A stretch of 64,000 nt of DNA from a virus (Duplodnaviria; Caudoviricetes), in IMG/VR virus record IMGVR_UViG_3300014205_000002, positions 144,265-208,264 of that record; one strand, given 5' to 3'. Position 1 is the stretch's first letter. Every line of letters begins with the position of its first letter. Positions 6,310 through 55,145 of this stretch are shown one piece after another. The position numbers and the translations under genes are program-made. A model generated the notes under the pieces. It searched no databases and had not been told where the DNA came from. It saw only the letters and a program-made list of their open reading frames with translations.

Positions 6310-6350
6310 CCGAGGGTCCTCCAGGCTATAGTTTAGCACGGCTTCTGAGG

Positions 6351-6398
6351 CTATTATAGGGGGAGCGGCCGGATGGTCGGTCCACCGTGCCGTATAAT
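6351..6398. promoter_or_regulatory. Divergent promoter region
   Basis: TATAAT on the - strand (6353-6358) and on the + strand (6393-6398) between divergent genes. TGGTCGGTCCA lies at 6374-6384. Confidence 0.55.
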
Positions 6399-6428
6399 AT
6401 GGGTAGGGCCAACGGTCCATGAGGTGAT

Positions 6429-11278: not shown

Positions 11279-12769
11279 CTATTTGATCTCCTTGATGCGC
11301 TTCATAGCATCGGCATCGTCGATCGGACACACGCGCATCCGCTCGACGAGACGGGGCCACCGCTCGCCCACGGCCTGGGCCATAAGCGTGGCGGCGATGC
11401 GGTAGTTCAGATGCCCGCCGGGCTTCGTCCGCAACTCCACGAGGCTGTAGAGCTCACGGAGGTTGCAGGCGAGGATGGCGCGCTTGTTGTAGCACATGGG
11501 CACGCAGTACTGCGCCACGAGCCGGCCGCACTGGGCCTCGATGTTCTCATAGAGCGCCTGGACCCCGAGCATGGCGTTCGCCCAGCGCTCGGTCAGATCG
11601 TAGCGGCCAGCGGCTTCCGGTAGATGGAAGCCGAGGTAGGGGTCGAGCGGCTGCTCGACGTGTAGGCACATGCGGTGACGCTGGAGGTCTCGCCAGGTAC
11701 CGAAGTCCAGCGTGAGGTCGAAGGTGTGGGGGTAGAGTTCCAGCGCACGCGGTGCGCCGTCGCGCTCGCCACGGCTCTCAAAGATGGCGTTCCAGATCGC
11801 CGAGAATTGCGTCTCATTCAGGCGGGCAATTGCGAACAGGAGGCGATTGTGGTCGACATTGACGTAGGGGTAGAGCGCCTGAGCGACGATGCGCTGCTCC
11901 GGCGGCCAGGCCCCGAGCAGCTCGACAGCAGGGCTGTCGGCGTGCTGGACCTGGCGTTCAAACGCGATCACGGAGGCGGCGATCGCAGCCATGGTCTCGC
12001 GGTAGGCCACCGGGTAGGTCTTGGGTGCGACGTACTTCACTAGCGTCGGCAGCTGTGACTGAAAAGTGGTCTTGAGACCCAAGCCGAGCGCGCGGGCCTC
12101 AGCAAGGTCGTGGCTGAGCAGCTTACTCACGCTGTGCTCGACGGTGCGCGCGTTGGCGACGTAGCCGACCATCGTCGTCGCCGAGGCCGGCAAGATGCCG
12201 CGAGCGACATCGAGGGCCTTGGCGCGCAGGTTCGCCGCATAGAGTGCCTCGCTCATGTCGGGCGATCGCGTAGCTTCGCCAGCGAAGGCCGCCATCAGGT
12301 CGTCCAGGGTCTCCTGGTAGAGCGCAAACAGGCCCATGCAGTGGTCAATGTAGGCCTCGCGCAGGCCATGGAGCGTGTCGTCCAGTTCGTCTGGCACGAT
12401 GAAGCTCGTGGGCCCCCAGGGCTGGTAGCGGGTCGAGGCCTCAACGTAGGAGCCGAGCCGGCCGTCTTCAAGCGCCTTGGCACAGAGCATGGAAATGTTC
12501 TCGACGCAGGCGTGACCGGTCGCCAGCTCCGCGACCGAGGCGTGCCCGTACCCCAGCACGTACTTGTCGTGGAAGGTCGAGGCCTTCTCCTTGGTTAGCA
12601 GGCCCGCGTTCTGGCGGAAGGGCAGCGGCGATCGCGAGGTCTTGGCGAGCGCGACCGCGACCTCCTCGGGTGTGAGCAGGGTGTCGCGCCCAGGAACCTC
12701 ATGGAAGAGGTGATAGGCTTCCTGGGGCTTACGGGCGACCCGGTAGGCTTCATAGAGGGTCTTGGACAA
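11279..12769 (-). CDS. thyX: Flavin-dependent thymidylate synthase, long double-domain form
   Basis: GYGHASVAE, EASTRY, DVARGILPAS, FGTWRDLQRHR, ELRTKPGGH. Confidence 0.88.
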   Translation of the reverse strand: MSKTLYEAYRVARKPQEAYHLFHEVPGRDTLLTPEEVAVALAKTSRSPLPFRQNAGLLTKEKASTFHDKYVLGYGHASVAELATGHACVENISMLCAKALEDGRLGSYVEASTRYQPWGPTSFIVPDELDDTLHGLREAYIDHCMGLFALYQETLDDLMAAFAGEATRSPDMSEALYAANLRAKALDVARGILPASATTMVGYVANARTVEHSVSKLLSHDLAEARALGLGLKTTFQSQLPTLVKYVAPKTYPVAYRETMAAIAASVIAFERQVQHADSPAVELLGAWPPEQRIVAQALYPYVNVDHNRLLFAIARLNETQFSAIWNAIFESRGERDGAPRALELYPHTFDLTLDFGTWRDLQRHRMCLHVEQPLDPYLGFHLPEAAGRYDLTERWANAMLGVQALYENIEAQCGRLVAQYCVPMCYNKRAILACNLRELYSLVELRTKPGGHLNYRIAATLMAQAVGERWPRLVERMRVCPIDDADAMKRIKEIK

Positions 12770-13499
12770 CCTGTTTCTCCTTGGGGGCCTTGGGCGGCCG
12801 GGGGGACTTTGGTGGCTGTTTCATCGCCGAGTAGCGGGTCACGACCGGCACCGGCGGCCGGTAGACGACGAGCACGTTGGGGAAGGGGGCCGAGTCCGGC
12901 GCACCGCCGAAGAACAGTCGGCCCTTGATTAGGCGGACCTCGTCGGCCTTGCCGTCGACCCAATCGTGAAACCAGCAGGAATCGGTGCGGGCGGGCACGA
13001 GGCAAACTACCGTGCAGCCTTGCAGGCTCTCCTCGTAGGCCTTGCGCATCCAGTCGGCGATGCCGGGCACATAGAACTCGTTGTGGTGGTCGCTCTCGCC
13101 GAAGGCGGCCTCGTAGGCGGCCATGAGGCCAGGTACTTGCGCCAGTAGCTCATAGGCCTTCTTGACGCCCGGCAGGTTGGTGATGCGCATGGCGAGCCGA
13201 CCCAGGCACTTCTTCTTCTTGCAGTTCTTCACGCAGGGCTGCTCGGCGTCCCCATACGGCGGATTCATATAAAAGACCTTCGCGGGGCGTCCGCACAGCA
13301 GCTTGATCTTGTGCCAGATCTTCATCAAGCCGTTGGTTTCGCGGGTGAAGTAGACGGGGCATTTGTGGTTCAGGTCGTCGGCGCAGACGTCGACCTCGAA
13401 GCCGAACTCCTCATGGAGCGCGCCATAGAACGCGTCGGGCGTCGACCAGTTATCGGTGCTGGACGAGAACATCGCCGCCTTGTCGGTGGCGTGCGCCAT
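12750..13499 (-). CDS. Phage DNA N6-adenine methyltransferase (lambdoid/T1 Dam-type family)
   Basis: NWSTP, VDVCA, MNPPYG, VCLVPARTD, IKGRLFF, APFP. Carries a ~60-aa Cys-rich insertion. Confidence 0.9.
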   Translation of the reverse strand: MAHATDKAAMFSSSTDNWSTPDAFYGALHEEFGFEVDVCADDLNHKCPVYFTRETNGLMKIWHKIKLLCGRPAKVFYMNPPYGDAEQPCVKNCKKKKCLGRLAMRITNLPGVKKAYELLAQVPGLMAAYEAAFGESDHHNEFYVPGIADWMRKAYEESLQGCTVVCLVPARTDSCWFHDWVDGKADEVRLIKGRLFFGGAPDSAPFPNVLVVYRPPVPVVTRYSAMKQPPKSPRPPKAPKEKQVVQDPL

Positions 13500-14086: not shown

Positions 14087-14606
14087 GGGGGGCCTCCTGT
14101 CTGGGGTGACTCGCGCCAGCGAGCAGAGCGGCGATGATGGGCTCGGTCGCGAGCAGGCGTTCACGCAGGCCCGCGGGTGCGCGCCGGCGGATGCCGCGGT
14201 AGCGAACACAGGGGCCTTCGGGCCAGAGCGCGACGCCGCTCAGGCCGGCGTGCTGGATCGTGGCCTCTGACTCCTCGACTAGTTCGTGGAACCAGGTGCC
14301 GAGCCGGGCAACCTCTTCAATATAGAAGGCGTCACAGCCCGTCGGATGCGCGATAAAGACCTGTTGGTCGGACCGGAAGATGCAGTGCTGTTTCTCGACC
14401 ATCTGGCGGGCCAGGTTGATCACGCGCTGGCGTGTCTCGTGCTCCAGGGGCGGCATACGCGAGCGCGACGAGACCTCAACTGCGGCGAACCCCTCTTCGA
14501 GCAGGTAGGCGCGGGTGGCCGAAGCCGCCGACGCGAGGGTGTGGTCGCTCTCGTTGAAGAAGCGCGAGAACTCGCCCATGTTCGTCTTGACGGCGACCTC
14601 AATCAC
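14079..14606 (-). CDS. Hypothetical protein
   Basis: 175 aa, coupled to both neighbours. Confidence 0.6.
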   Translation of the reverse strand: MIEVAVKTNMGEFSRFFNESDHTLASAASATRAYLLEEGFAAVEVSSRSRMPPLEHETRQRVINLARQMVEKQHCIFRSDQQVFIAHPTGCDAFYIEEVARLGTWFHELVEESEATIQHAGLSGVALWPEGPCVRYRGIRRRAPAGLRERLLATEPIIAALLAGASHPRQEAPLG

Positions 14607-16414: not shown

Positions 16415-16734
16415 ACATCCTCCTCGGGATGGTTCTTGGCTGGACCTCTGGTCCGACCAACCGAGCGTGAGAGCAGGAGCGTCGCCAGCCTCTGCCCAAA
16501 CAGGCCGCTGGCCCCGTTCGCGTTGACCTCCTCGATCAGGACGTCGAGCGCGAGCTGCATCAGCTGGCTCTTGTCGATCTCCTCGCGCATCTTAAGGGAT
16601 AGCTGCATTTGTACGAGCCCGAAGTCTACGAGCTGCTGCTTGGAGAAGTAGAAGGTGCGGCGGATGTCGCACTTTTCATCGACTGGCCGGCGGTAGCTGG
16701 TGGCGTCGGGAAAGCCGTAAGGGGTAGTGGTCAA
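16411..16734 (-). CDS. Small DNA-binding protein, ribbon-helix-helix/partition-adaptor-like
   Basis: RRTFYFSKQQL...IDKSQLMQLALDVL. TTG start with SD GGAGG. Confidence 0.5.
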   Translation of the reverse strand: MTTTPYGFPDATSYRRPVDEKCDIRRTFYFSKQQLVDFGLVQMQLSLKMREEIDKSQLMQLALDVLIEEVNANGASGLFGQRLATLLLSRSVGRTRGPAKNHPEEDV

Positions 16735-16993: not shown

Positions 16994-17181
16994 CGGACCT
17001 CCGGGGAGAAAGAGGGAAAGGGGTGTCGAACATCACAGACAGTGCGACGAAACTGATGTGTCACAGTATCATCTGATGCACGCTGTAATCAAGGTTCAGG
17101 CCGTAGCTAGGCTGTAACGTTTAATCAACGATGTTAAGTTAGGCTCACCAGGCTTGATGAAGTAATATTGCGGACGGACTG

Positions 17182-17583
17182 TCAAAGCCTTTGACAAGGA
17201 CGCCCAAACGACGCCAAATGAAGACCTGCGCGATCTATCGCCTGCGCGGTTGCCTCGTCATCAAGCGTGTCGAAATTGTTACGCTTAATGAATGATAGAA
17301 TTACGTCTACGTCGTCCTCAAGTTTGCCAACCGAGGCGACATAGCCATCCCCAGGCGATTGTGCGTCGAGCGCGAGGGCCTTTTGCCGGGCATGCTCCTC
17401 GACGACGGCGAGCTTGTCGTAGAGAGAACAATCAATTTCCCGATGGCAGGCCGAGCATGTTCCCAGATGTTCGGCAAGCTCATTCTGGGCGTCGAAGGCC
17501 AGTTTCATGTGGTGGCGGACACGCTCGACGCGGCGGCACCCCAGGCACACGACTGCTGGCACCGGGGGTATGGGCTCGGACAT
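17182..17583 (-). CDS. Cys-containing hypothetical protein
   Basis: Start MSEPIPP with SD GAGGAG. CLGC and CSAC pairs. Confidence 0.6.
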   Translation of the reverse strand: MSEPIPPVPAVVCLGCRRVERVRHHMKLAFDAQNELAEHLGTCSACHREIDCSLYDKLAVVEEHARQKALALDAQSPGDGYVASVGKLEDDVDVILSFIKRNNFDTLDDEATAQAIDRAGLHLASFGRPCQRL

Positions 17584-18121
17584 AGCTCCTCCTCGCGTGG
17601 CGCATGATCGTGCGACTGTATCCACTGCGGTAGATGCCGCGACTGACCGCGCTTCCACCCATATTATAGGCAACCAAGGCCATCTCCAGCCGGGTGTCCG
17701 CAGTCGCGCGCAGGAAGCGTTTTTCGACCTGGCGCAATTCAAAGGCGAGGATGCGGCAGGAGAGGTGGGCGTTCAGCTCGGGATCCTGCCAGCGTGAGCG
17801 CGGGAAACCCTTGCGCGCGTCCCACCAGAAGGGCATGACCTGACCGAGGCCGAGTGCGCCCGCCCCGCTGACGGCGCGCGGGTTGTAGTTGGACTCCGTC
17901 CAGAAGAGGGCGGCCGCGACCATCGGGTCCAGGCGATGCCTGGCGGCGGCGCGCCGTACGATGGGTGCGTAGTAGTCGGCCTTCTCGCGAGCCAGAGCCT
18001 TGCCGTACTCAGGCAGGCACTGCGCGTAAATGTAGGCCTGGACATTGTCGGCGGCCTCGGCGGCCGCTGCCGGCATCAGTGCGAGGGCGAGGGCGAGCGC
18101 GAGGCGCTGCAAGAATTTCAT
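17480..18121 (-). CDS. Lytic transglycosylase (SLT domain) with a signal peptide
   Basis: ESNYNPRAVSGAGALGLGQVMP, AYNMG. N-terminal MKFLQR-hydrophobic-AEA. Confidence 0.92.
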   Translation of the reverse strand: MKFLQRLALALALALMPAAAAEAADNVQAYIYAQCLPEYGKALAREKADYYAPIVRRAAARHRLDPMVAAALFWTESNYNPRAVSGAGALGLGQVMPFWWDARKGFPRSRWQDPELNAHLSCRILAFELRQVEKRFLRATADTRLEMALVAYNMGGSAVSRGIYRSGYSRTIMRHARRSYVRAHTPGASSRVPGVPPRRACPPPHETGLRRPE

Positions 18122-18185: not shown

Positions 18186-18214
18186 GGGGTCTGACCAAAC
18201 ATTGGTCAGACCCC
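18186..18214. repeat. Perfect 13-bp inverted repeat made of two GGTCNGACC boxes
   Basis: GGGGTCTGACCAA-ACA-TTGGTCAGACCCC between dut and the SLT gene. TACAAT on the - strand at 18158-18163. Confidence 0.85.
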
Positions 18215-18223
18215 GGGAGGCAT

Positions 18224-18859
18224 TCAGCGCACGCCAGAGGTGCCCCAGCCACCCACCCGGTTGGACGGCGGCAGTGCGTCGACGGGCGTCCAGTCGCCCT
18301 CGACGTAGGCCTCGACACAGATCTGGGCGATGCGATCACCGCCGGTGACCCGGAACGGCCTGTCGGAGTGGTTGTAGAGCACCACGCCGATCTGCTCGCG
18401 GTAGTTGTTGTCGATCAATCCCGCACCGACCTCGATGCCCTCGTTTGAGGAGAGGCCCGAGCGACTCTCGACCACGATCTTGTAGCCGGGTGGCAGCGCG
18501 ACCTTGATGCCGATGCCGAAAGTCTTGCGGCCGCCTGCGGGAATGACGATACTGTCGGCGTTGCCCATGCGCAGAAACTCATAGCCGTCGTCGCCATTGC
18601 GGTACTTGAGGCTGTAGGCGAAGACGTCCGAGGCCACGTCGCCCGGCTGCATGGTCTTGGGCGCAGTGGCCCCTTTCATGACCACCGTGGGAATGCTCAG
18701 CTTGGGGGCGAGGCCCGCGAGTGCGACGATGGCGCGAGCCAGCTCCGGCGTGATGGCGATCGCGTCGGTGTTCAGGCTGCTGGAACCAGCCATGACCGGC
18801 AGGCGCTGGAGCGGCAACACGAGCTCGCCCTGGGCGTTGGTGTAGTGACTAGCGGGCAT
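18224..18859 (-). CDS. dut: Trimeric dUTPase
   Basis: ESRSGLS, GLIDNNYR, GDRIAQ, RVGGWGTSG. Confidence 0.93.
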   Translation of the reverse strand: MPASHYTNAQGELVLPLQRLPVMAGSSSLNTDAIAITPELARAIVALAGLAPKLSIPTVVMKGATAPKTMQPGDVASDVFAYSLKYRNGDDGYEFLRMGNADSIVIPAGGRKTFGIGIKVALPPGYKIVVESRSGLSSNEGIEVGAGLIDNNYREQIGVVLYNHSDRPFRVTGGDRIAQICVEAYVEGDWTPVDALPPSNRVGGWGTSGVR

Positions 18860-20732
18860 GGGGCAGCTCCTTGGTTACAGCGAGTCCTGCGCGCTTGACG
18901 AAGGGAAGGAACTCGGGGACGGGGTGGAGGATGCGCTCGCCGAGCGCGATCCTGATCTGGTTACCCAGATGCCAGCCGAATAGCGGGGGTACCGCATTGC
19001 CGACCTGCCTGTATTGGGCCGAGCGGGGGCCCTGGAAGACCCAGTCGTCGGGGAAACTCTGGAGCCTCGCGGCTTCGCGCACGGTCAGCCGGCGCAGCCT
19101 GCGTGGCGGCGGAGCTGGTACGATGTGGGTGTGGTTGGCCCCGCCCGAGGCGACGATCGTCTGCGCGGGCTGGTCCATGTCCTGGACGCGACCACGGCCG
19201 TTGAAGATGGTCTCGGCGGGGTTTCCGGGCCGGGCCATCAACTCCTTCGCGCGCTCCGAAGCGGGCACGATGGCGATCGCGTTGTCCTCGTGGTTGGGCA
19301 CGGGCAGCAGGTTGGCATTGCCGCAGTCCTGCTCGGCGATGATGGTCTTCGCTGGTGCGTCCCAGCTCATGGCCGGATTACTCAGCTTACCCGCGAGGGC
19401 GCTGGGCCTAGGCGGCGAGGCCGGCTCGTGGTTGGGGACGTCACCCATGATGAAGTCGACGTTACCCGAGGTGTTGATCGTGCGGCCTGGCGCATCGGGA
19501 TCGAGCAGCTTCATGCCCTGACCGACGTGCCCTGCGAGGATGGCCTCTTCATGCGTGCCCGTGTAGACGCTGGCCTCGTGGTTGGCGGGGATGGCCTGCT
19601 GGTGGTGGGCTCGTACGGTGTTGGCAGGCTTGTCCCAGGCGTGCAGGCCGTTGGGGCCGGCCCCGCGATCGGCGGCGTGCTCGATGTGCCTGATCTCACC
19701 GGGCGTGAGCGGGTGATTCACGTGGTTCTCGACCGGTAGCAGGTTCACGTTCCCCGAGCGCTGGTGGGCGATGATGCACGACGCGGGCTCGTCGAGCGCC
19801 ATCGGAGCCTTCATCGACCAGTCGCTCTCGCCGGTGAGCGCGGAGGGTACCGGCGGGGGCGCGGCCTCATGGTTCTCGACGGGGATCAGGTTGTTGGTGC
19901 CGGACTCCTGCTTGGCGATGATCGTACGCGCGACCTGGTCGAGTTCCATCGGTGGGTGTTTCTGAGCCCAGGAGCTGTCGGCGATCGCCGCACATGGTGG
20001 CGGCGGAGGAGCTGGCTCATGGTTGGCGGCGGGGGCGAACGCGGGACCGTAAGGGGCCGGCAGATCGCTGATGGCCTGACGGACCGTGACCCATCTGCGC
20101 AGCGTACCGAAGAAGCCCGGAGTGGGAGTGTCCGCATGCGTCGGCTTCGGCCAGGGGAAGAAGCTCTCGTCGCGTCGGCCGAAGAAGATCACGCGGATGC
20201 GCTTCTGGGGAACGCCGTAGTCGGCCATGTTGATCATGCGGTACTCGACGCTGTAGCCGATGTCCCTGAAAGCCTGGAGGATCACGTCCTTGACCAGAGT
20301 CTGGTCGTCGTCGGTCTTCATCGTGAGTAGCCCCTTGACGTTCTCCATGACGAAACCCCACGGCTTGGCCTCGTCGACGACCCGTACAAACTGCCAGAAC
20401 AGCTTGTTGCGCGGATCGTCCGCCTCGCGCTTGCCAGCGGTAGAGAACCCCTGGCAAGGTGGCCCGCCCACCACGAGGCGGGCCTGACCGGAAACCAGTC
20501 CTGCCGCCTCAAGGATGACCTCGGTGGGAATGGCGCAGATATCGCCCTTGAGCACGGGGATCCCCTGGCGGTTGTGGCGCAGCGTGTCGACGGCGTGCCC
20601 GTCGAGTTCGACCGCAACGCGCACGTCGAACCCCGCGGACTCCAGCCCGATATCCAGGCCCCCGGCCCCCGAGAACAGTGAGATGATCGGCATCGGCCGG
20701 TTGGTCGGACCGTGCATGGGGACGATGGTCAC
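18849..20732 (-). CDS. dcm: DNA cytosine-5 methyltransferase with an expanded, repetitive variable region
   Basis: FSGAGG, GGPPCQGFS, MENVKGL, YGVPQKRIR, RRLTVREAARLQSFPD, YRQVGNAVPP. Confidence 0.95.
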   Translation of the reverse strand: MTIVPMHGPTNRPMPIISLFSGAGGLDIGLESAGFDVRVAVELDGHAVDTLRHNRQGIPVLKGDICAIPTEVILEAAGLVSGQARLVVGGPPCQGFSTAGKREADDPRNKLFWQFVRVVDEAKPWGFVMENVKGLLTMKTDDDQTLVKDVILQAFRDIGYSVEYRMINMADYGVPQKRIRVIFFGRRDESFFPWPKPTHADTPTPGFFGTLRRWVTVRQAISDLPAPYGPAFAPAANHEPAPPPPPCAAIADSSWAQKHPPMELDQVARTIIAKQESGTNNLIPVENHEAAPPPVPSALTGESDWSMKAPMALDEPASCIIAHQRSGNVNLLPVENHVNHPLTPGEIRHIEHAADRGAGPNGLHAWDKPANTVRAHHQQAIPANHEASVYTGTHEEAILAGHVGQGMKLLDPDAPGRTINTSGNVDFIMGDVPNHEPASPPRPSALAGKLSNPAMSWDAPAKTIIAEQDCGNANLLPVPNHEDNAIAIVPASERAKELMARPGNPAETIFNGRGRVQDMDQPAQTIVASGGANHTHIVPAPPPRRLRRLTVREAARLQSFPDDWVFQGPRSAQYRQVGNAVPPLFGWHLGNQIRIALGERILHPVPEFLPFVKRAGLAVTKELPHAR

Positions 20733-21568: not shown

Positions 21569-22404
21569 GGGGTTTGGTCTCCTGTTCTGGGGGACAGTGC
21601 CGGGGCAATGCCGCCGGAGGCGGCCAGGTGTTGGAGGTGCTTCCAGACGGCGTAGGCGACGACGCCGATCCGATCCTGATCGCCGGGCTTGACCTGGCCG
21701 TTTTCCAGGAGGTTGACCGTGACGCCGTTCATCGCCAACGCCTGGACGAGCTCGGGGTAGGTGGCGATCGCCGAGTATGGAATACAGGCGAAGGCGCTGT
21801 GGCCTGGGCTCGCGTACCATTCGTGGCTACACCAGCAGATCGAGCACCCCATCGAGGCCCCGCCTTTGCCGCAACGCGAACAGCTGTAGAGTGGATTGCC
21901 GCCACCGGTCATCCCTGCACCCGCGACGCTCCGGAGGACGCGCCCTTGGCAGTGGCGGCACATATGCGGCTCAACCACCCATGTAACGCGCCCCTGTGTG
22001 TCGTCGGGTATCGGAAACCCCGCGGCCATGGCCCGCTCAAAGTCGCGCCGGAGTACGATGCCGATCCGCGAGCCCTTGAGGCCGTCGTTCCAGTCGCACC
22101 CGCAGCTGCCGAAGGCTGGCCGCAGGATCGCCTTGGCCGCCTCGGGTACCGTTGGCGCATACATCGCGTTCATGTCGACACAGCGGTAGCCGTTGTCGCC
22201 CGAGCTGTAGCCGCACCAGCAGAGCTTGGTCAACTCGTCGCTCTTGCCGCACTCTGGACAAAAGAACATGCCCTCGCCGCCCAGCCACGAGAGTAGCCGT
22301 CCGCCGCAGCGGCACAGGTGAGTCGATAGCCGGTAGCGCTCAGGAGAGCGCGTCTTGCCCGGCCACATGATTGTGCGAGCGCGCACCATCGTGCCTCCCG
22401 CCAT
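21565..22404 (-). CDS. Cys-rich protein with an internally duplicated Zn-binding domain
   Basis: HLCRCGGRLL..CPECGK..CWCG is repeated as HMCRHCQGRVL..CSRCGK..CWCS. Confidence 0.7.
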   Translation of the reverse strand: MAGGTMVRARTIMWPGKTRSPERYRLSTHLCRCGGRLLSWLGGEGMFFCPECGKSDELTKLCWCGYSSGDNGYRCVDMNAMYAPTVPEAAKAILRPAFGSCGCDWNDGLKGSRIGIVLRRDFERAMAAGFPIPDDTQGRVTWVVEPHMCRHCQGRVLRSVAGAGMTGGGNPLYSCSRCGKGGASMGCSICWCSHEWYASPGHSAFACIPYSAIATYPELVQALAMNGVTVNLLENGQVKPGDQDRIGVVAYAVWKHLQHLAASGGIAPALSPRTGDQTP

Positions 22405-22507
22405 CTCTGGCTTGTTGGTCGGACCGGGAAGTGCAATCTCTTGCGCCTCCCGGTCCTGGTGGTTTCAATGAGTTGAGTTTACCCTAAAGCAAGCAGGCGG
22501 TAAACCT

Positions 22508-28609: not shown

Positions 28610-28834
28610 CTAGCGGCTACCCAGGACCCGCAGGACTCGACGCTCGGTTTGGCGATCCAGCGTTCCCGCAAAGAGCCGCCGCATCTCGTCTTCCATTCGC
28701 GCCGCTGTGGATTGTTGGTCCGACCAACGGGGGGATTCAAGTATCCCATCTACGGGGGAGAAAGGCAACGTTACGTCTACCGAAACATTGGTCGGACCAT
28801 CGTCAGAGCCGACGAAAAACGCATCACCTTTCAC
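28610..28834 (-). CDS. Small hypothetical protein
   Basis: GTG start, SD GGAGGAG. Confidence 0.55.
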   Translation of the reverse strand: MKGDAFFVGSDDGPTNVSVDVTLPFSPVDGILESPRWSDQQSTAARMEDEMRRLFAGTLDRQTERRVLRVLGSR

Positions 28835-32589: not shown

Positions 32590-32951
32590 TTCAATCCAAG
32601 CCTCCGATTGATGACGCTCGCGAGCGGCAGGTAGTAGTCGATGTGTTCGGTGGGCTCGCCTGTGCCCTTGCGCAGGCGCGGGACCGCCACGAGGTAGCGC
32701 GGCGTGGCTGACCGCAGCAGTCCCTTGATCTTACTCGCGGGCACGCATGCCGATCTGGCGTGCTCGCCATGGGGGTCGTAGACGGGTTTGCCCGCGTGTT
32801 TGGCGATCGCCTCCTGGGCGCTGGCGTGGCTGGGGATGAACGCGAGGATGGTTCCGCTTTTTGAACGCGTACAGCCGCCCGCCTGGCTCGACCACAGGGC
32901 CGCAACTCCAGGTGTAGCCCTGTTGTACTTGGCGTCGTTGTCGATTCTCAT
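32586..32951 (-). CDS. Hypothetical protein
   Basis: 121 aa, SD GAGGAGG. Confidence 0.65.
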   Translation of the reverse strand: MRIDNDAKYNRATPGVAALWSSQAGGCTRSKSGTILAFIPSHASAQEAIAKHAGKPVYDPHGEHARSACVPASKIKGLLRSATPRYLVAVPRLRKGTGEPTEHIDYYLPLASVINRRLGLK

Positions 32952-32970
32952 TGACAGAATCCTCCTCGGG

Positions 32971-35106: not shown

Positions 35107-35138
35107 TGACAGAATGAGGGGGAGCGTGTGGCGATCGC
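35107..35138 (-). promoter_or_regulatory. Bipartite motif GCGATCGC-N14-CATTCTGTCA, copy 1
   Basis: Intergenic, upstream of the 35081 start. Same layout at 36769 and 38331. Confidence 0.65.
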
Positions 35139-35346
35139 GGGTTAGGTGCCGGGGATGCGCAGTTGCTGACCGGCAACCGTGACAACAATGGGGGTGCGGG
35201 ACTGCAAGTTCGCGAACAGGGCCTCGAACTCGGGAGTTCCTCGCCTGGCCTGGATGTCGATGGAGAACTCCATCACCTCGTCGGGCAGTGGTCTGTCGTC
35301 GCGATCGCTCCATGAGGCGCGAAAGACGAGAGGAGCCTGGGCGTCC

Positions 35347-35847
35347 TCAGGCCATCACCATGCGGGCCGAGGTGTACTTCTTATAGAGCGGGTGGTTGGG
35401 CTGGCCGGTCTTGGAGAGCCCATCAAGCGAGTGCAGGAGGTGCTCGCTCAGGAGTTTGCGCACGGCCTTGTCACGATTGAGGAGCTTGCCGTGGTTGCCC
35501 CAGGCAGCGATCAGGAGCTGACTGTCGTTGGCGGCCTTGAGGATGGCGGCGTTGTTGCGGGGGCCAACGCAGTCGATCTCGTAGGCATTGTCTTTGAGGA
35601 CGGCGGGGCTTGTCTCGCGGTAGGCGAAGAGGTTCGCGACGGTGATGCCGCCGTAGCCCCATTTGTCCGCGAAACCCATGCACTTGCGAATGGTGGCGTC
35701 GTCGACCTCGGCGTCAGCGGTCGATGGGTTGAGCATAATGAAGCCGACGAGACCGGCTTCCGGCTTCCAGATACGAGTCAGGGCGTAGCGATACAACCCA
35801 GACTCGCAGAGGTCGGCGGTCTTTGTGATGACGGTGTCCTTTTCCAA
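35347..35847 (-). CDS. DUF1643-family protein
   Basis: YRYALTRIW, FIMLNPSTAD..DDATIRKC, NLFAYRET, IAAWG, PNHPLY. Confidence 0.88.
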   Translation of the reverse strand: MEKDTVITKTADLCESGLYRYALTRIWKPEAGLVGFIMLNPSTADAEVDDATIRKCMGFADKWGYGGITVANLFAYRETSPAVLKDNAYEIDCVGPRNNAAILKAANDSQLLIAAWGNHGKLLNRDKAVRKLLSEHLLHSLDGLSKTGQPNHPLYKKYTSARMVMA

Positions 35848-35852
35848 GGTGG

Positions 35853-36494
35853 CTAGTACCTTTCTCTCTCGGCTGTGAAGCCGCCGTTCCCGCAGTTAAA
35901 GCAGAGCGTGCCTTCGACCTGGACCTTGCAGTAGTGCATGACGTTGCACTCTGAGCAGCGTCGCCATTCGGTCCCAGGCTTTGGCCCAGGCTCTCCAGGC
36001 AGGCGATCGCGGATGGGCTTCATCGGGTAGGTGGGCGGGAACGGCGGTGCTACAGGAAAAACGTAGGGGACCTTCTCCACCACGAACTCTTCGGGGGCAA
36101 GGAGCGCGGGGCGATCACCCCGAGCGTTGCGCCAGATTAGCTCATGGAGGACTGCGTCCACATCGTCGGGCATGCGCGCCTCCATGTGCTTGAACACGAC
36201 GTCAGCTACGGCCACCTTTCCGGCGATATCAGTGGGCAAGATCGGCTGAGGTGGCGGTATCTGGGGTGGTGGAGGTGCTTGGCGCTGGGTGAGCAGAGCC
36301 CGCATCTCGTCGACGGTGACACCCAGGCCCAGTACGGTCTTGGCGGTCTTGGCGTGAGCGACCTGCTCGCGCCGCAGGGCTTCGGTGAGCGTGGCGATCG
36401 CCAACTCGGCCGTGGCTACGTCCCCAGCGAGTTGGGCTGCACGGCGCTGCGACTGGACCGCACGCCGATCCCATTGCACGCTGAGTGTAGACAT
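35853..36494 (-). CDS. Hypothetical protein, coiled coil plus C-terminal Zn ribbon
   Basis: CSEC...CFNCG. Confidence 0.65.
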   Translation of the reverse strand: MSTLSVQWDRRAVQSQRRAAQLAGDVATAELAIATLTEALRREQVAHAKTAKTVLGLGVTVDEMRALLTQRQAPPPPQIPPPQPILPTDIAGKVAVADVVFKHMEARMPDDVDAVLHELIWRNARGDRPALLAPEEFVVEKVPYVFPVAPPFPPTYPMKPIRDRLPGEPGPKPGTEWRRCSECNVMHYCKVQVEGTLCFNCGNGGFTAERERY

Positions 36495-36754
36495 TACGCT
36501 TTGACCTCCGACGCGCTGAACTCGATGAAGTTCTCGACGAACTCCGGCCCCATTACGATGGCCTTGTTCGCCAGGGCGGAGACGATGTCCAGTTGGAGCA
36601 AGGCGGCATCGCGGTAGTGACCGATGGGTGTGCTCTCGACGATGGTGTCGTAGAGCTTCTTGACCTGGGCGCGAACCGCGGTGATCGCAGCGACATCAGC
36701 TTGCGTCGGCGCTTGGTAGTCATGAGGGTGGCGGCCGGCGTAGGATTGGGTCAT
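36494..36754 (-). CDS. Acb2/Tad1-like helical-hairpin protein (candidate nucleotide-signal sponge)
   Basis: HDYQAPTQAD..ITAVRAQVKKLYDTIVESTP..RDAALLQLDIVSALANKAIV. SD GAGGAG. Confidence 0.55.
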   Translation of the reverse strand: MTQSYAGRHPHDYQAPTQADVAAITAVRAQVKKLYDTIVESTPIGHYRDAALLQLDIVSALANKAIVMGPEFVENFIEFSASEVKA

Positions 36755-36768
36755 ATGGTGCTCCTCGT

Positions 36769-36800
36769 TGACAGAATGTGATCGACTCTATGGCGATCGC
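36769..36800 (-). promoter_or_regulatory. Bipartite motif GCGATCGC-N14-CATTCTGTCA, copy 2
   Basis: Intergenic, directly before the SD of the 36754 gene. Confidence 0.65.
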
Positions 36801-36802
36801 TT

Positions 36803-37162
36803 TCAGGGGGTGATGGGGTTTCCGTTGGCGTCCCGCAGGAAGAAGTAGAGCTTGCTCTTATCGGTGTCGCTGATCGACACGCAGATGGCACCCAGGCCTT
36901 GGAGTGGGCCCTCGTCGAAGATGCCGAACAGGCCGTTGAGGACACCGAGCAGGCCCACCACATAGCAGTGCTCGTCCTGCTGGGTAGCAACATTGACGAC
37001 GGTGCTGCTCTTTGCGACCTGGACTGTTGGGTGATCCGCCAACTCCAGGGTATTGACGCGGGTGCGGATCTCGACCAGGTTGTGGATCGCTCCTGGATCC
37101 AGGCTGGCGAGCTCATTCAAGAAGCGCACTAACTCGGCGAGCGTGACGGAGGGCTTGATCAT
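36803..37162 (-). CDS. Hypothetical phage protein
   Basis: 119 aa. LADHPTVQV..VGLLGVLNGLFG. Confidence 0.7.
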   Translation of the reverse strand: MIKPSVTLAELVRFLNELASLDPGAIHNLVEIRTRVNTLELADHPTVQVAKSSTVVNVATQQDEHCYVVGLLGVLNGLFGIFDEGPLQGLGAICVSISDTDKSKLYFFLRDANGNPITP

Positions 37163-37165
37163 GGC

Positions 37166-38305
37166 CTAGTAGCCTTCGTGTTCGTGGATGGTGTAGTACT
37201 TCGTCGCGAGCATGGCCGGACCAGGCTCAAGGACCACGTCTTCATCGGGGTCGTCCTTGAGGATTGAGTCCCGCTCAAGCTCGGCTGAGGCCTTGCTTGG
37301 GCAGGTCATTGGCGAACTCTGCCGAGGGCCCACTTTGTAGGTTTGGAGCGTGGTGTTGCCGCATTCGCTGTGGAGCGCGCCGCCCGCGCCGACGCCCGTC
37401 CGAACGACCCAGCAGCCGGTGCGAATTGGCACCATTAGATTGCAGTGGAGGCAGCGGATTCCCTCCAAGCGCCCATGGCCGAAGACCGAGTAGCCAACAC
37501 CCTCGTCGGTCTCGGCCGCACGACTGAGCGCCTTGCTATGAAGGTTGGCAGCAGCGGCATCGAGCCCGTACTGCTCGTGTGGCACGGGTGCCTCGACGCT
37601 GTATGAGTCGCCCTTGGCATAGTCGATACCGATCACGCTCTCGGCGTTGAGGGCGATCGCGTCGATCTTCTCGGCACCAGGCAGGACGAAGCAGGCTGAC
37701 AGCTGTCCAGTGGGCTTGCGCCTGGGCAGGAGGCGATCGTCCACGCCGTAGAGGGTGAGCAATGCGAGGTCGCCGCCGGCGTGGTAGGTGACCTCGACCT
37801 GGGGGCCGCCCTCGACCTCGTGCTCGGCGTCGAGTATCTCGATGCCCTGGGTCTTCATGAGGGTGACCAGACGCTTGGCCTGTCGAACCATTCCCGCAGG
37901 GTCGATGCCGATGTGAATGAAGCTCTCACTGGAACGCGCGCCCGCTTCAATCTCAACGGGGACGAAGCCAGCTCCGGTGAGCAGCTGCCAAGTTCTGAGG
38001 ATATTGGCAGGCACTTCGTCGTGGGTGATGGGCTCCGCGAGAACGATGGCGCAGTCTTCCTCGTCGGTGCCCTCGAAGTCGAGCGCGTAGCACTCGTCGG
38101 CGATCGCGATGACCGCCTCCGCGCGCGAGTTGATCTTGCTGATGCGATCGTTGGTGATGTGGCAGTAGACCTTGCCCACTTCCTGAATGGCCGTGTGGTA
38201 GTCGAACAGCTCGCGCATCACCTTGTCGGGGTCGAGTCGGCCCGTCGCCGGGTCTTCCACGAGGGGCTTCCAGAAGCTGGCGTAATTCTTCTCGTAGTCT
38301 TGCAA
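37166..38305 (-). CDS. Mosaic hypothetical protein containing an RNR active-site peptide
   Basis: TTG start, SD AAGGAG. Internal TGQLSACFVLP. Confidence 0.7.
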   Translation of the reverse strand: MQDYEKNYASFWKPLVEDPATGRLDPDKVMRELFDYHTAIQEVGKVYCHITNDRISKINSRAEAVIAIADECYALDFEGTDEEDCAIVLAEPITHDEVPANILRTWQLLTGAGFVPVEIEAGARSSESFIHIGIDPAGMVRQAKRLVTLMKTQGIEILDAEHEVEGGPQVEVTYHAGGDLALLTLYGVDDRLLPRRKPTGQLSACFVLPGAEKIDAIALNAESVIGIDYAKGDSYSVEAPVPHEQYGLDAAAANLHSKALSRAAETDEGVGYSVFGHGRLEGIRCLHCNLMVPIRTGCWVVRTGVGAGGALHSECGNTTLQTYKVGPRQSSPMTCPSKASAELERDSILKDDPDEDVVLEPGPAMLATKYYTIHEHEGY

Positions 38306-38330
38306 TCCGGGCTCCTTTGGCTCTTGCTGC

Positions 38331-38361
38331 TGACAGAATGTGGCAGGTGCGAGGCGATCGC
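38331..38361 (-). promoter_or_regulatory. Bipartite motif GCGATCGC-N13-CATTCTGTCA, copy 3
   Basis: Intergenic, upstream of the 38305 start. Confidence 0.65.
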
Positions 38362-38368
38362 GCTCCCC

Positions 38369-38875
38369 TTACTCGCCGGTCTCGGGAAGTTTGGTCGTGC
38401 CGTCCTTCGGCAGGCGCTCCACGATGCGCCTGAACACGCGCTCCAGTCGATCCGACTGTTCAATTAGACGAGCCGCCTCGATGGCGTGGTGGCGCGCTTC
38501 CGGGCTGGCGTTCTCCGAGATGACGGCGAAGGGAGCCATGTCCGTCGAGTAGACCTCGCAGAGCGTGACGGCGAACTCCGCCTCGTCTCGCGTCAGCATG
38601 GCATACCCCAGCGTGTTGCCGTTTGCGCGGCCTGACGACTCAGCTACGTCCTGCTTGCTCATTGTCTGAATGGTCCAGTGGTACACATCGGCCGGTAGTC
38701 CGAACGAGTGGTCTTTTCCCTTGAAGATGACCATCCCTGGTACGACCGACAGGCCAATGTGGCTTGGATGCGGGTCCGACGGAAAGATTTCCGTGATGTC
38801 CTTGTAGTCCGTTTTCAGGGCCTTGCAGACGACTTTTACGGGCATATCCAGGGTTCCTTTCGGTCGCTTAATCAC
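38369..38875 (-). CDS. Hypothetical protein
   Basis: First gene of the leftward block. Start may be MPVKV. Confidence 0.65.
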   Translation of the reverse strand: MIKRPKGTLDMPVKVVCKALKTDYKDITEIFPSDPHPSHIGLSVVPGMVIFKGKDHSFGLPADVYHWTIQTMSKQDVAESSGRANGNTLGYAMLTRDEAEFAVTLCEVYSTDMAPFAVISENASPEARHHAIEAARLIEQSDRLERVFRRIVERLPKDGTTKLPETGE

Positions 38876-38898
38876 CGGTCGACCGGGGGCGCTTAGGG

Positions 38899-38942
38899 AT
38901 TATACGCCTATGTGCGACAGGAAGCAAGCAAGGTGGTATAAT
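38899..38942. promoter_or_regulatory. Divergent sigma70-like promoters at the strand switch
   Basis: - strand TTGCTT-N17-TATAAT (38927-38899). + strand extended -10 TGGTATAAT (38934-38942). Confidence 0.7.
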
Positions 38943-39042
38943 CCGGGCGTATTCACCGGCAGACCCGTGCGGACCGTTGGTCATACCACGCGCACAATCA
39001 ATGGATCAGTGTAACTCTGACGACAGAGAGGATGTGATTGCG

Positions 39043-41583: not shown

Positions 41584-41733
41584 ACACGTTGGTCGGACCA
41601 GGTGGGCGGATGCGCACTTTCGTTAGGAAGTCACGGCAGCATGTCTCAACGCAGTCAGTGGACTCTCGGGATCGACGGATCGTCTCAAGCCGGAGCGAGA
41701 CCGCACTTAGGCGGCGAACGGAGCGTCGCAGCG

Positions 41734-46229: not shown

Positions 46230-46606
46230 GCGCCGAACCTGGACAGATGACCGTCAGCCGCTGGCTCCGCCTGGAGCTGGCGGCCCAGGTCAGCACCCAG
46301 GTGGACGCCTGCGTCCTGTTAGAGGCGATCGCCCGACAGATACGCGTGACTTCAAACTGCTCACTCCGGTCCGACCAACCGCCCACGGAGGAGCAGGTCT
46401 CCTATCACCTCAACATGACGGGGCCCACGTTTCACGCCAAGTCCATGTTGCGGCTCGACATCATAGGCGTGGGCGATCGCGCAGCCATCGACGACCAGAT
46501 TAACACCATGCTGGGGCGGCTTATCAAGGCGGTCGACCAGGCGTACAGCGGGCACACAGGGCTGGCGCTCAGCGTCAAGGCCCTGCGCCACCCCGAGGAG
46601 GAATAA
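46226..46606 (+). CDS. Hypothetical protein
   Basis: GTGA coupling. Confidence 0.55.
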   Translation: MSAEPGQMTVSRWLRLELAAQVSTQVDACVLLEAIARQIRVTSNCSLRSDQPPTEEQVSYHLNMTGPTFHAKSMLRLDIIGVGDRAAIDDQINTMLGRLIKAVDQAYSGHTGLALSVKALRHPEEE

Positions 46607-48863: not shown

Positions 48864-48921
48864 CCCGTTGGTCGGACCGCTCGCATCACCCGAAACCCAC
48901 ATCACCCGAGAGGAGGCCCCT

Positions 48922-54704: not shown

Positions 54705-55126
54705 TGCGACTGTTCAACGCGGCGTCAACCAACCTCGATCGCTACAACCCCAACTGGGAGAAGGGGCTGGAGTTGGGCGACCTCGCGCAATGGCTGGTCA
54801 ACTGGAAGACCGGCACGGAGATCCTCGATCTCTATCTGGAGTGCCAGGCGCTTGCCCTCGTGGAGAACCCCGGCTACTGCCATCGCCTGCCAGGCCGGCC
54901 CGACCCCACCATCCCGCCGTTCCGGGCCCGCGCGAAGTGCCTCGCCGGTGCAGCCTGGGTGGCGCTTGAGCCCGAGGTCGCTGGCCAGCTCGTCGCGGAC
55001 ACGGTGGTCGCGAAAAAGGCCAAGCGAATGGTCGTCGACATGCAGCGCGCCCAGGACGAGAAGTGCTGGGCGGTATTGGGGCTGCTGCTCACGTTTGAGG
55101 AGTTGATGTTCCCCTTGCCCCTATAA
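54704..55126 (+). CDS. Hypothetical protein
   Basis: TAATG coupling to the tape-measure gene. Confidence 0.6.
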   Translation: MRLFNAASTNLDRYNPNWEKGLELGDLAQWLVNWKTGTEILDLYLECQALALVENPGYCHRLPGRPDPTIPPFRARAKCLAGAAWVALEPEVAGQLVADTVVAKKAKRMVVDMQRAQDEKCWAVLGLLLTFEELMFPLPL

Positions 55127-55145
55127 TACCCTCGGAGGCGGCGAG

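Follow-up and report, generated by a model that had tools for sequence, protein, structure and literature searches.

Does HIP1 (highly iterated palindrome 1), the octamer GCGATCGC that is hyper-abundant in cyanobacteria, take part in starting transcription when it lies at a set distance from a second conserved box in a phage genome? The question is raised by a 64,000-nucleotide stretch of DNA (the window, whose coordinates are used below unless the genome is named), the right-hand 64 kb (positions 144265–208264) of IMG/VR record IMGVR_UViG_3300014205_000002, a complete phage genome of 208,264 bp with direct terminal repeats. Near the head of a block of 46 minus-strand genes, three intergenic gaps hold HIP1 followed, 13 nt later in one copy and 14 nt later in two, by the downstream box CATTCTGTCA. 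A sequence-only reading had taken these gaps for a phage-specific promoter class with HIP1 as the upstream element and CATTCT as the −10. We find that the motif is real, conserved, lineage-specific and regulatory, and we tentatively interpret it, with a probability of about 0.48 as judged from sequence, as a small lineage-specific class of internal promoters, or transcription-initiation control sites, in an early operon.

The spaced motif and its copies

Within the window, GCGATCGC-N(10-18)-CATTCTGTCA matches exactly three times, always on the minus strand and in the gaps that had been singled out (copies M1–M3, Table 1), and it matches nowhere in 100 dinucleotide shuffles of the window. The whole genome contains the same three matches and none elsewhere, contrary to the expectation that a full scan would turn up more; when mismatches are tolerated, the next-best bipartite matches differ at three or more positions and every one of them is coding. 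M1–M3 occupy consecutive short gaps in the first 4 kb of the gene block. Each starts 2–7 nt past the upstream stop codon and has a good Shine–Dalgarno sequence downstream, and the measured distances to the start codons (25, 14 and 25 nt) agree with the range of 14–25 nt given earlier. The spacers of the three copies differ in length by 1 nt and are unrelated in sequence, so that the copies are not recent duplicates of one another. No consistent gapped dyad other than HIP1 with this box is seen between genes.

The core of the downstream box, the 9-mer ATTCTGTCA, occurs five times in the genome: in M1–M3, in a lone intergenic copy and once inside a gene. The lone copy, correctly described before as preceding the start codon at 32951, lies between the Shine–Dalgarno sequence and the ATG, directly abutting the latter, and has no HIP1 box. 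It is not kept in the related phage R1 introduced below, in which the corresponding gap reads GGGAAGAAG, and its function is doubtful. The intragenic copy, CACATTCTGTCA, is identical to M1 and M2 over 12 nt. It lies in sense orientation in the gene that opens a further long leftward operon, is written in rare codons, and does not have HIP1 at the usual offset. A sequence one mismatch away from the box, ATTCTATCA, is found at 17293–17301 (−) inside an unusually long (486 nt) AT-rich non-coding gap at 16994–17479.

HIP1 itself is common in this phage. It occurs 52 times in the window, where shuffles give 5.3 ± 2.0 (an excess of about tenfold), and 120 times in the genome; 114 of these genomic sites are coding and 6 intergenic. 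Related phages are likewise rich in HIP1. Half of the six intergenic sites belong to the motif described here. When HIP1 sites were randomised at their local density, none of 200,000 trials reproduced the offset seen at three of the phage's four intergenic boxes, and no other sequence was found at a fixed offset from HIP1. The association of HIP1 with the 9-mer at fixed spacing is non-random. Because nearly all HIP1 sites are coding and no other partner motif accompanies them, HIP1 is not in general a promoter element in this phage.

Conservation in a related phage

Two relatives were found by a protein search with the C5 cytosine methyltransferase of the phage: R1, an 80-kb Logan contig (72% identity), and R2, a JGI contig of about 204 kb (45% identity). 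R1 is collinear with the window over 60 kb, with protein identities of 27–89%, broadly about 40–70%, and aligned coding DNA that is 68.5% identical; for the genes flanking the motifs, amino-acid identity between the two phages is 27–52%. At all three orthologous junctions R1 carries ATTCTGT(C/T)A. The 9-mer is kept there at 9/9, 9/9 and 8/9 positions, compared with the roughly 55–68% identity expected, and the base in front of it is free (C, G or T overall, G or T in R1). Across the 60 kb of R1, ATTCTGT occurs at four sites only (copies a–d, Table 1), all on the sense strand and within 4 kb, which with the five copies above makes nine copies of the downstream box.

Three of the R1 copies are orthologues of M1, M2 and M3. 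HIP1 is perfect at M1/a, absent at c, and at M3/d has one mismatch and lies 4 nt closer to the box owing to an indel in the spacer, while the downstream leader at M3/d is similar in the two phages as well. The fourth, copy b, is built inside a single gene, the orthologue of a 440-amino-acid gene. It encodes ...AIANGWEYSVS... and does so with TAT, used for 5% of Tyr codons, and TCT, used for 2.3% of Ser codons. The joint probability of this choice is 0.0003, which points to selection on the nucleotide motif itself. On these sequence comparisons, the downstream 9-mer is under strong purifying selection.

Could the copies be a chance coincidence, or the non-functional remnant of a local duplication? 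The family has very few members and is confined to two related phages, and scans with the exact and the loosened motif pattern over viral, metagenome and genome contigs gave single unrelated matches, in about chance numbers and with no proteins in common with the phage. But the boxes are perfect while their spacers are unrelated, they are conserved at orthologous junctions, and one copy is written in rare codons; coincidence is effectively refuted, with a probability close to nil. Protein searches from the genes next to the motif turned up no relatives: the 379-amino-acid gene had no match in IMG/VR and found only itself in a set of 5.8 billion proteins, a word-index search with the 86-amino-acid gene found only itself, and the 274/276-amino-acid alignment had no match in IMG/VR. 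A further relative, G001, reached through its terminase, is a 106-kb fragment that does not include the motif region and is hence uninformative on the motif.

Table 1. Copies of the motif and other features discussed in the text. Positions are those of the window unless marked as genome positions; aa, amino acids.
Feature	Position	Strand	Sequence or product	Context
M1	38331–38361	−	GCGATCGCC + 12-nt spacer + CATTCTGTCA	7 nt past stop of operon gene 1; 25 nt ahead of TTG 38305 (379-aa gene)
M2	36769–36800	−	GCGATCGCC + 13-nt spacer + CATTCTGTCA	2 nt past stop; 14 nt ahead of ATG 36754 (86-aa Acb2/Tad1-hairpin-like gene)
M3	35107–35138	−	GCGATCGCC + 13-nt spacer + CATTCTGTCA	3 nt past stop; 25 nt ahead of ATG 35081 (234-aa gene)
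Lone 9-mer	32952–32960	−	ATTCTGTCA	Between Shine–Dalgarno GAGGAGG and ATG 32951 (121-aa gene)
Intragenic copy	genome 40874–40885	−	CACATTCTGTCA	Outside the window
R1 copy a (M1 orthologue)			GCGATCGCC-N13-GATTCTGTTA	25 nt ahead of ATG of the 379-aa-gene orthologue
R1 copy b			GCGATCGCC-N12-TATTCTGTCA	Inside the 440-aa orthologue
R1 copy c (M2 orthologue)			GATTCTGTCA, no HIP1 box	Precedes the Acb2-like orthologue
R1 copy d (M3 orthologue)			CCGATCGCC-N9-GATTCTGTCA	28 nt ahead of the 234-aa-gene orthologue
Motif-bearing block	131–38875	−	46 genes	Headed by divergent gap 38876–39000
Sigma-70-type promoter	38899–38927	−	TTGCTT-17-TATAAT	Head of the 46-gene block
Divergent partner promoter	38914–38942	+	GCGACA-17-TGgTATAAT	
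Operon first gene	38369–38845	−	about 158 aa	In relatives: L051:9328-9813; L066:6238-6726
Acb2/Tad1 hairpin family gene	36494–36754	−	86 aa	Directly downstream of M2
C5 cytosine DNA methyltransferase	18849–20732	−		Same operon, about 14–18 kb downstream of the motifs
Dam-family N6-adenine DNA methyltransferase	12750–13499	−		Same operon
RNA polymerase beta-beta' fusion (N-terminal part)	genome 9898–15765	+	1955 aa	
Beta' C-terminal protein	genome 20065–21915	+	616 aa	
Sigma-like protein, region 2	genome 61957–62919	+	320 aa	
Sigma-like protein, regions 3–4	genome 4937–5647	+	236 aa	
TATAAT-type class	6340–6428	both	cccTATAATa(a/c)c(c/t)tcgga / cccTATAATaacctcgga	
TATAAT-type class	55120–55127	+		About 10 more elsewhere in the genome
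TATAAT-type class	17663–17670	−		
Palindrome	2132–2142, 14364–14374, 16450–16460, 18188–18212, 20701–20711		TTGGTC(N)GACCAA	
Palindrome, further sites	22415–22425, 28715–28798, 41589–41599, 46368–46378, 48868–48878		TTGGTC(N)GACCAA	
Start-codon motif	38991–39000	+	CGCACAATCA	One more elsewhere in the genome
Start-codon motif	22368–22377	−	CGCACAATCA	

Geometry of the motif and competing explanations

In the promoter reading, motif copies in the promoter-proximal 4–6 kb of a long early operon would drive modules of small early or anti-defence genes. The first part of the core, NATTCT, would act as a −10-like element, with A as its second and T as its sixth base; transcription would start a few bases past the box, giving leaders of about 10–25 nt. 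The HIP1 nonamer GCGATCGCC, 12–13 bp upstream of NATTCT, would be an auxiliary recognition box in place of a −35, recognised by a sigma-like protein of the phage or by an activator, in the manner of the MotA box at phage T4 middle promoters. A2 and T6 are present in all nine copies of the hexamer, position 1 of which is C, G or T. Between GCGATCGCC and NATTCT lie 12 bp in M1, 13 bp in M2 and M3, 13 bp in R1 copy a and 12 bp in copy b; copy d, with 9 bp, is the exception. Such spacing is short for a −35/−10 pair and fits an activator-box geometry of 12–13 bp better. What survives of the proposed −35/−10 arrangement with CATTCT is thus NATTCT as a possible −10, the leading C not being conserved and HIP1 being unlike a −35.

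With spacers of unrelated sequence whose lengths differ by only ±1 nt, the motif suggests a two-domain reader such as sigma. A DNA-level promoter is the most economical explanation because it accounts for two boxes joined by a flexible, sequence-free spacer, for the key −10 positions and for the MotA-like geometry, and also because of the short leaders that it implies, the lack of a hairpin, terminator or Rfam family, and the phage's own sigma-like proteins and RNA polymerase. The folding z-scores of the three gaps range from −0.4 to +1.8, so these regions are no more structured than shuffles; no conserved hairpin was seen in them, and neither an Rfam family nor a terminator was found there. 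A phage sigma factor, named earlier as something to look for, has two candidates in the genome, which encodes a pair of sigma-like proteins together with homologues of RNA polymerase beta and beta', although nothing ties a particular transcription factor gene to the motif. Promoter activity, HIP1 as an upstream element, the position of the transcription start site (TSS), the pairing of a given factor with a given box and any effect of methylation are inferences.

Several observations weigh against a promoter. NATTCT matches TATAAT at 3/6 positions and makes a poor −10, HIP1 shares at most 2/6 positions with TTGACA, and a sigma-70 consensus scan called no site at the three gaps. The idea of a phage-specific promoter class is partly borne out: the motif is non-random, bipartite, orientation-specific and kept in R1. 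The lone copy at 32952 abuts its ATG and cannot serve that gene as a promoter, and copy c of R1 is at most 8 nt from its gene, or inside it. HIP1 is wanting at copy c, at the lone copy and at the intragenic copy at genome 40874, and the mutation and 4-nt shift of HIP1 at copy d are of a kind that normally inactivates a spacing-dependent promoter. Between this phage and R1, 7 of 33 coding HIP1 sites are kept (0/6 in the neighbouring genes), and the record at the orthologous junctions (one perfect, one near, one lost) is no better than that background, so that retention of HIP1 is by itself no proof of function. R2 has the same operon head, including the conserved first gene and the orthologue of the 234-amino-acid gene, and shows no trace of the motif, from which we conclude that the motif is specific to the sub-lineage of this phage and R1. 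Finally, a strong, conserved sigma-70-type promoter precedes all copies, and all are transcribed in the same orientation, an arrangement that a signal in the RNA would fit equally well. Our confidence stays near one half because HIP1 is absent or misplaced in some copies and because the sense orientation suits an RNA signal.

Such an RNA-level signal would be AUUCUGUCA, with GCGAUCGCC upstream, on the early polycistronic transcript: a single-stranded site at which an endoribonuclease or RNA-binding protein would act to process early mRNAs, make them less stable or govern their translation, in the manner of T4 RegB, which cleaves early messages. Every one of the nine copies reads in the sense direction of a transcribed operon that has a conserved strong promoter upstream, copies are found within open reading frames as well as between genes, and the box is predicted to be mostly unpaired. 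Four copies in the two phages lie 25–28 nt before a start codon, a distance that agrees with short leaders and would be compatible with a 5′ end made by processing. T4 is known to control its early mRNAs through RegB (PMC2988021), and the RegB sites and the copies here are alike in being short intergenic signals in early transcripts near ribosome-binding sites. But RegB recognises GGAG within the Shine–Dalgarno sequence, whereas here a 9-mer and a second box lie upstream of it. It would also be unusual for a known endoribonuclease to recognise an invariant 9-nt site together with a second box at ±1 spacing. HIP1, a palindrome in DNA and a target of methylation, is not known to act in RNA, and the surroundings of the sites yielded no candidate nuclease or RNA-binding protein. 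We consider an RNA signal rather unlikely.

Alternatively, only ATTCTGTCA may be functional, as a promoter or otherwise, and the adjoining HIP1 may be a by-product of the hyper-abundance of HIP1 in phage and host. HIP1 is 14–15 nt upstream of the 9-mer in five of the nine copies and missing or displaced in the other four, its turnover between the two phages is fast, and copy d tolerates both a spacing change and a mutated box. In cyanobacteria, HIP1 was found to have no link to TSSs (PMC5861425), and a proposed HIP1-binding factor is disputed (PMC6331805). Against this stand the offset itself, which is far beyond chance, its presence in at least four evolutionarily separate units (M1/a, M2, M3/d and b), one of them built within a coding region, the share of intergenic HIP1 sites taken up by the motif, and the lack of any other sequence at a fixed HIP1 offset. 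The fixed offset in five copies and the pair built within a gene argue that HIP1 is part of the element, and we regard the by-product explanation as unlikely. HIP1 may be the −35-like element that had been supposed, though not an obligatory one; missing or displaced in 4/9 copies, it looks like an auxiliary upstream element.

The pair might also be a DNA site that binds a phage or host regulator without itself being a promoter. It could serve as an operator, roadblock or pause site and so shut off or pace read-through from the upstream sigma-70-type promoter, or else as an ops- or nut-like site for loading an elongation factor. The copies do cluster promoter-proximally in long operons and in one orientation. 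RNA polymerase peaks in chromatin immunoprecipitation coincide with 41 HIP1 sites in Synechococcus elongatus, and peaks centred on some HIP1 sites within transcripts are reported there (PMC3219970). Gene repression by Sll1130 acting at GGCGATCGCC has been put forward (cited in PMC6331805). However, the claim that Sll1130 is a HIP1-binding transcription factor is contested and was not reproduced (PMC6331805). As opposed to ops and nut antitermination sites, the element has no boxB-like conserved hairpin, and no NusG paralogue was found in the phage by a search for the NusG NGN domain (NusG/RfaH-like genes) whose positive controls worked; for antitermination, one site per operon would suffice. 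An asymmetric second box with flexible spacing is atypical of operators, and a binding site of this kind seems decidedly unlikely.

Other candidates were tried and rejected. An antisense (+ strand) promoter with TGACAG as −35 has no usable −10 following it, and an antisense small open reading frame from the ATG within TGACAGAATG is stopped at once in M2. Iterons, a pac site and parS are at odds with the 1–2 kb spacing and the single orientation of the copies. A T7-type class II pause signal was set aside since no single-subunit RNA polymerase was found, though the control of that search was uninformative.

T4 middle promoters are among the closest known systems. There, a MotA box lies 12 ± 1 bp from the −10, and sigma is appropriated by MotA and AsiA (PMC2988021). 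Both are bipartite, with a phage-specific box of 9–10 bp in place of the −35 (here GCGATCGCC, 12–13 bp from NATTCT), and both are found in a prereplicative or early region downstream of host-type early promoters. T4 middle promoters, however, need an excellent TAtaaT −10, whereas here NATTCT is followed by an invariant GTCA, and they number about 60, compared with three or four copies here with a box that is the host-type HIP1 palindrome. No match to MotA or AsiA homologues (PF09158, PF09010) was found in the complete phage genome, so that the element does not belong to the T4 system.

Jumbo phages that encode RNA polymerases typically have a phage-specific conserved motif of about 10 nt centred near −10 upstream of early operons (PMC7598289). 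Similar to phiKZ and AR9, the phage has RNA polymerase beta/beta' proteins and a short, relatively AT-rich, near-invariant motif of about 10 nt before early modules. It differs from them in that just one beta/beta' set was detected, in its true sigma-like proteins and in its canonical sigma-70-type operon promoter; the motif family is much smaller and has an upstream box. With cyanobacterial HIP1 the phage shares the identical octamer, usually with the extra C of the extended form, at hyper-abundance. Whereas genome-wide analysis in cyanobacteria found HIP1 unrelated to TSSs or promoters (PMC5861425), a handful of copies here keep a constant distance to another conserved box. A literature search turned up no account of HIP1 in phage promoters, in keeping with the suggestion that such a role would be new, although a regulatory role of HIP1 had been proposed before, and disputed (PMC6331805, PMC5861425). 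The element is best classed as a phage-specific bipartite promoter-like motif.

The operon, its phage and further motif classes

The operon head is conserved, and R1 has the same divergent gap. The leftward promoter of the 46-gene block is kept with a similar spacer, as TTGCAT-17-TAAGAT in R1 and TTGCAT-17-TATAAT in R2, and is likely an immediate-early promoter for the host RNA polymerase. Each of the three phages has the first gene at the same place and with conserved sequence (48% and 25% identity), and the product of this gene is a candidate immediate-early regulator. It belongs to no recognisable family; an AlphaFold model had a mean pLDDT (predicted local distance difference test) of 44.5 and was not used, and an Atlas search gave no usable match. 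The genes around the motifs are mostly orphans, the exceptions being a DUF1643 protein, an acyl carrier protein and the 86-amino-acid gene. That one copy of the motif directly precedes an Acb2/Tad1-like gene was rightly noted before. The Pfam match of the 86-amino-acid protein itself is weak (E = 0.012), while 14 of 17 homologues, which include fusions to larger proteins (246–255 amino acids), match PF24729, and a profile of the homologues matches PDB 9ptq, ‘Acb2 homolog’, at E = 8e-5. From these matches the protein is likely a cyclic-nucleotide sponge against CBASS (cyclic-oligonucleotide-based antiphage signalling system) or Thoeris.

The RNA polymerase proteins, encoded at two loci (L012 and L013), match Pfam Rpb2_6 and Rpb1_1-5 and PHROG RNA polymerase beta families, and the larger has a LAGLIDADG intein inside it. 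One sigma-like protein has sigma-70 region 2 only and the other has regions 3–4; both genes have homologues in the distant relative G001. The best NCBIfam matches of the second are to cyanobacterial group-2 sigma models, and this weak best match is the sole hint of a cyanobacterial host.

Both methyltransferases of the operon are kept in R1 and R2. By analogy, the C5 enzyme is a candidate for modifying the CGATCG core of HIP1 and the Dam-family enzyme for modifying its GATC core. Promoters with GATC in a promoter element, such as pIN of the IS10 transposase and that of phage P1 cre, are sensitive to Dam methylation; the element described here is like them in having GATC in a putative upstream element and a cognate-type methyltransferase in the same genome. 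T4 promoters can be turned off or made active by modified bases within the box (PMC2988021), and in cyanobacteria HIP1 is tied to GATC and CGATCG methyltransferases (PMC4390886, PMC6105098), types that both have counterparts in this phage. HIP1 might here serve as a true upstream element of promoters, recognised by a phage sigma-like protein or activator and gated by methylation: during infection the phage's own enzymes would modify GATC/CGATCG in the box and so switch early anti-defence promoters off or on. The switch is attractive because both enzyme types are encoded downstream in the same operon; going by the sequence evidence, we consider it quite improbable.

Three or more distinct intergenic motif classes are present in the genome. 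An abundant promoter-like class, of the TATAAT type and without a conserved −35, has about a dozen intergenic copies and is probably the main promoter class of the phage; CCCTATAAT-type sites also occur in R1 and R2, and not in the G001 fragment. A palindrome, TTGGTC(N)GACCAA, recurs, often in the larger intergenic gaps and sometimes paired, and is frequent in R1 and R2 too; it is a candidate operator of a conserved regulator, or a hairpin. Start codons are abutted by CGCACAATCA in three places with no obvious Shine–Dalgarno sequence, which may make it a special translation-initiation context. Between genome positions 90340 and 93675, short AT-rich gaps with TCAAT(A/G)(C/T)(T/A)... followed by CATTGAAAGGAG directly before start codons form a third intergenic motif class.

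The phage sequence, with a G+C content of 64%, comes from a landfill metagenome, and a search of sequencing runs listed the source DNA run as its sole holder and no RNA run. The phage has no close isolate: a megablast search against known phages gave no match, and the best identity of its terminase to that of any isolate is 27.5%. Rough gene calls give 270 genes covering 93% of the 208-kb genome. The phage is a member of an undescribed jumbo lineage, and with its intein-containing RNA polymerase fusion, two sigma-like proteins and several motif classes it is an interesting system for phage transcription. HIP1 has been without an accepted function for some 30 years, and this locus offers a small, sharply defined and testable case. 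If HIP1 is a promoter element here, the phage would be exploiting a palindrome of host type that is hyper-abundant, and possibly also the methylation of that palindrome, in timing early and anti-defence genes that include the Acb2-like sponge. Gating by methylation, if true, would make this a self-timing circuit and give individual HIP1 copies their first defined molecular function.

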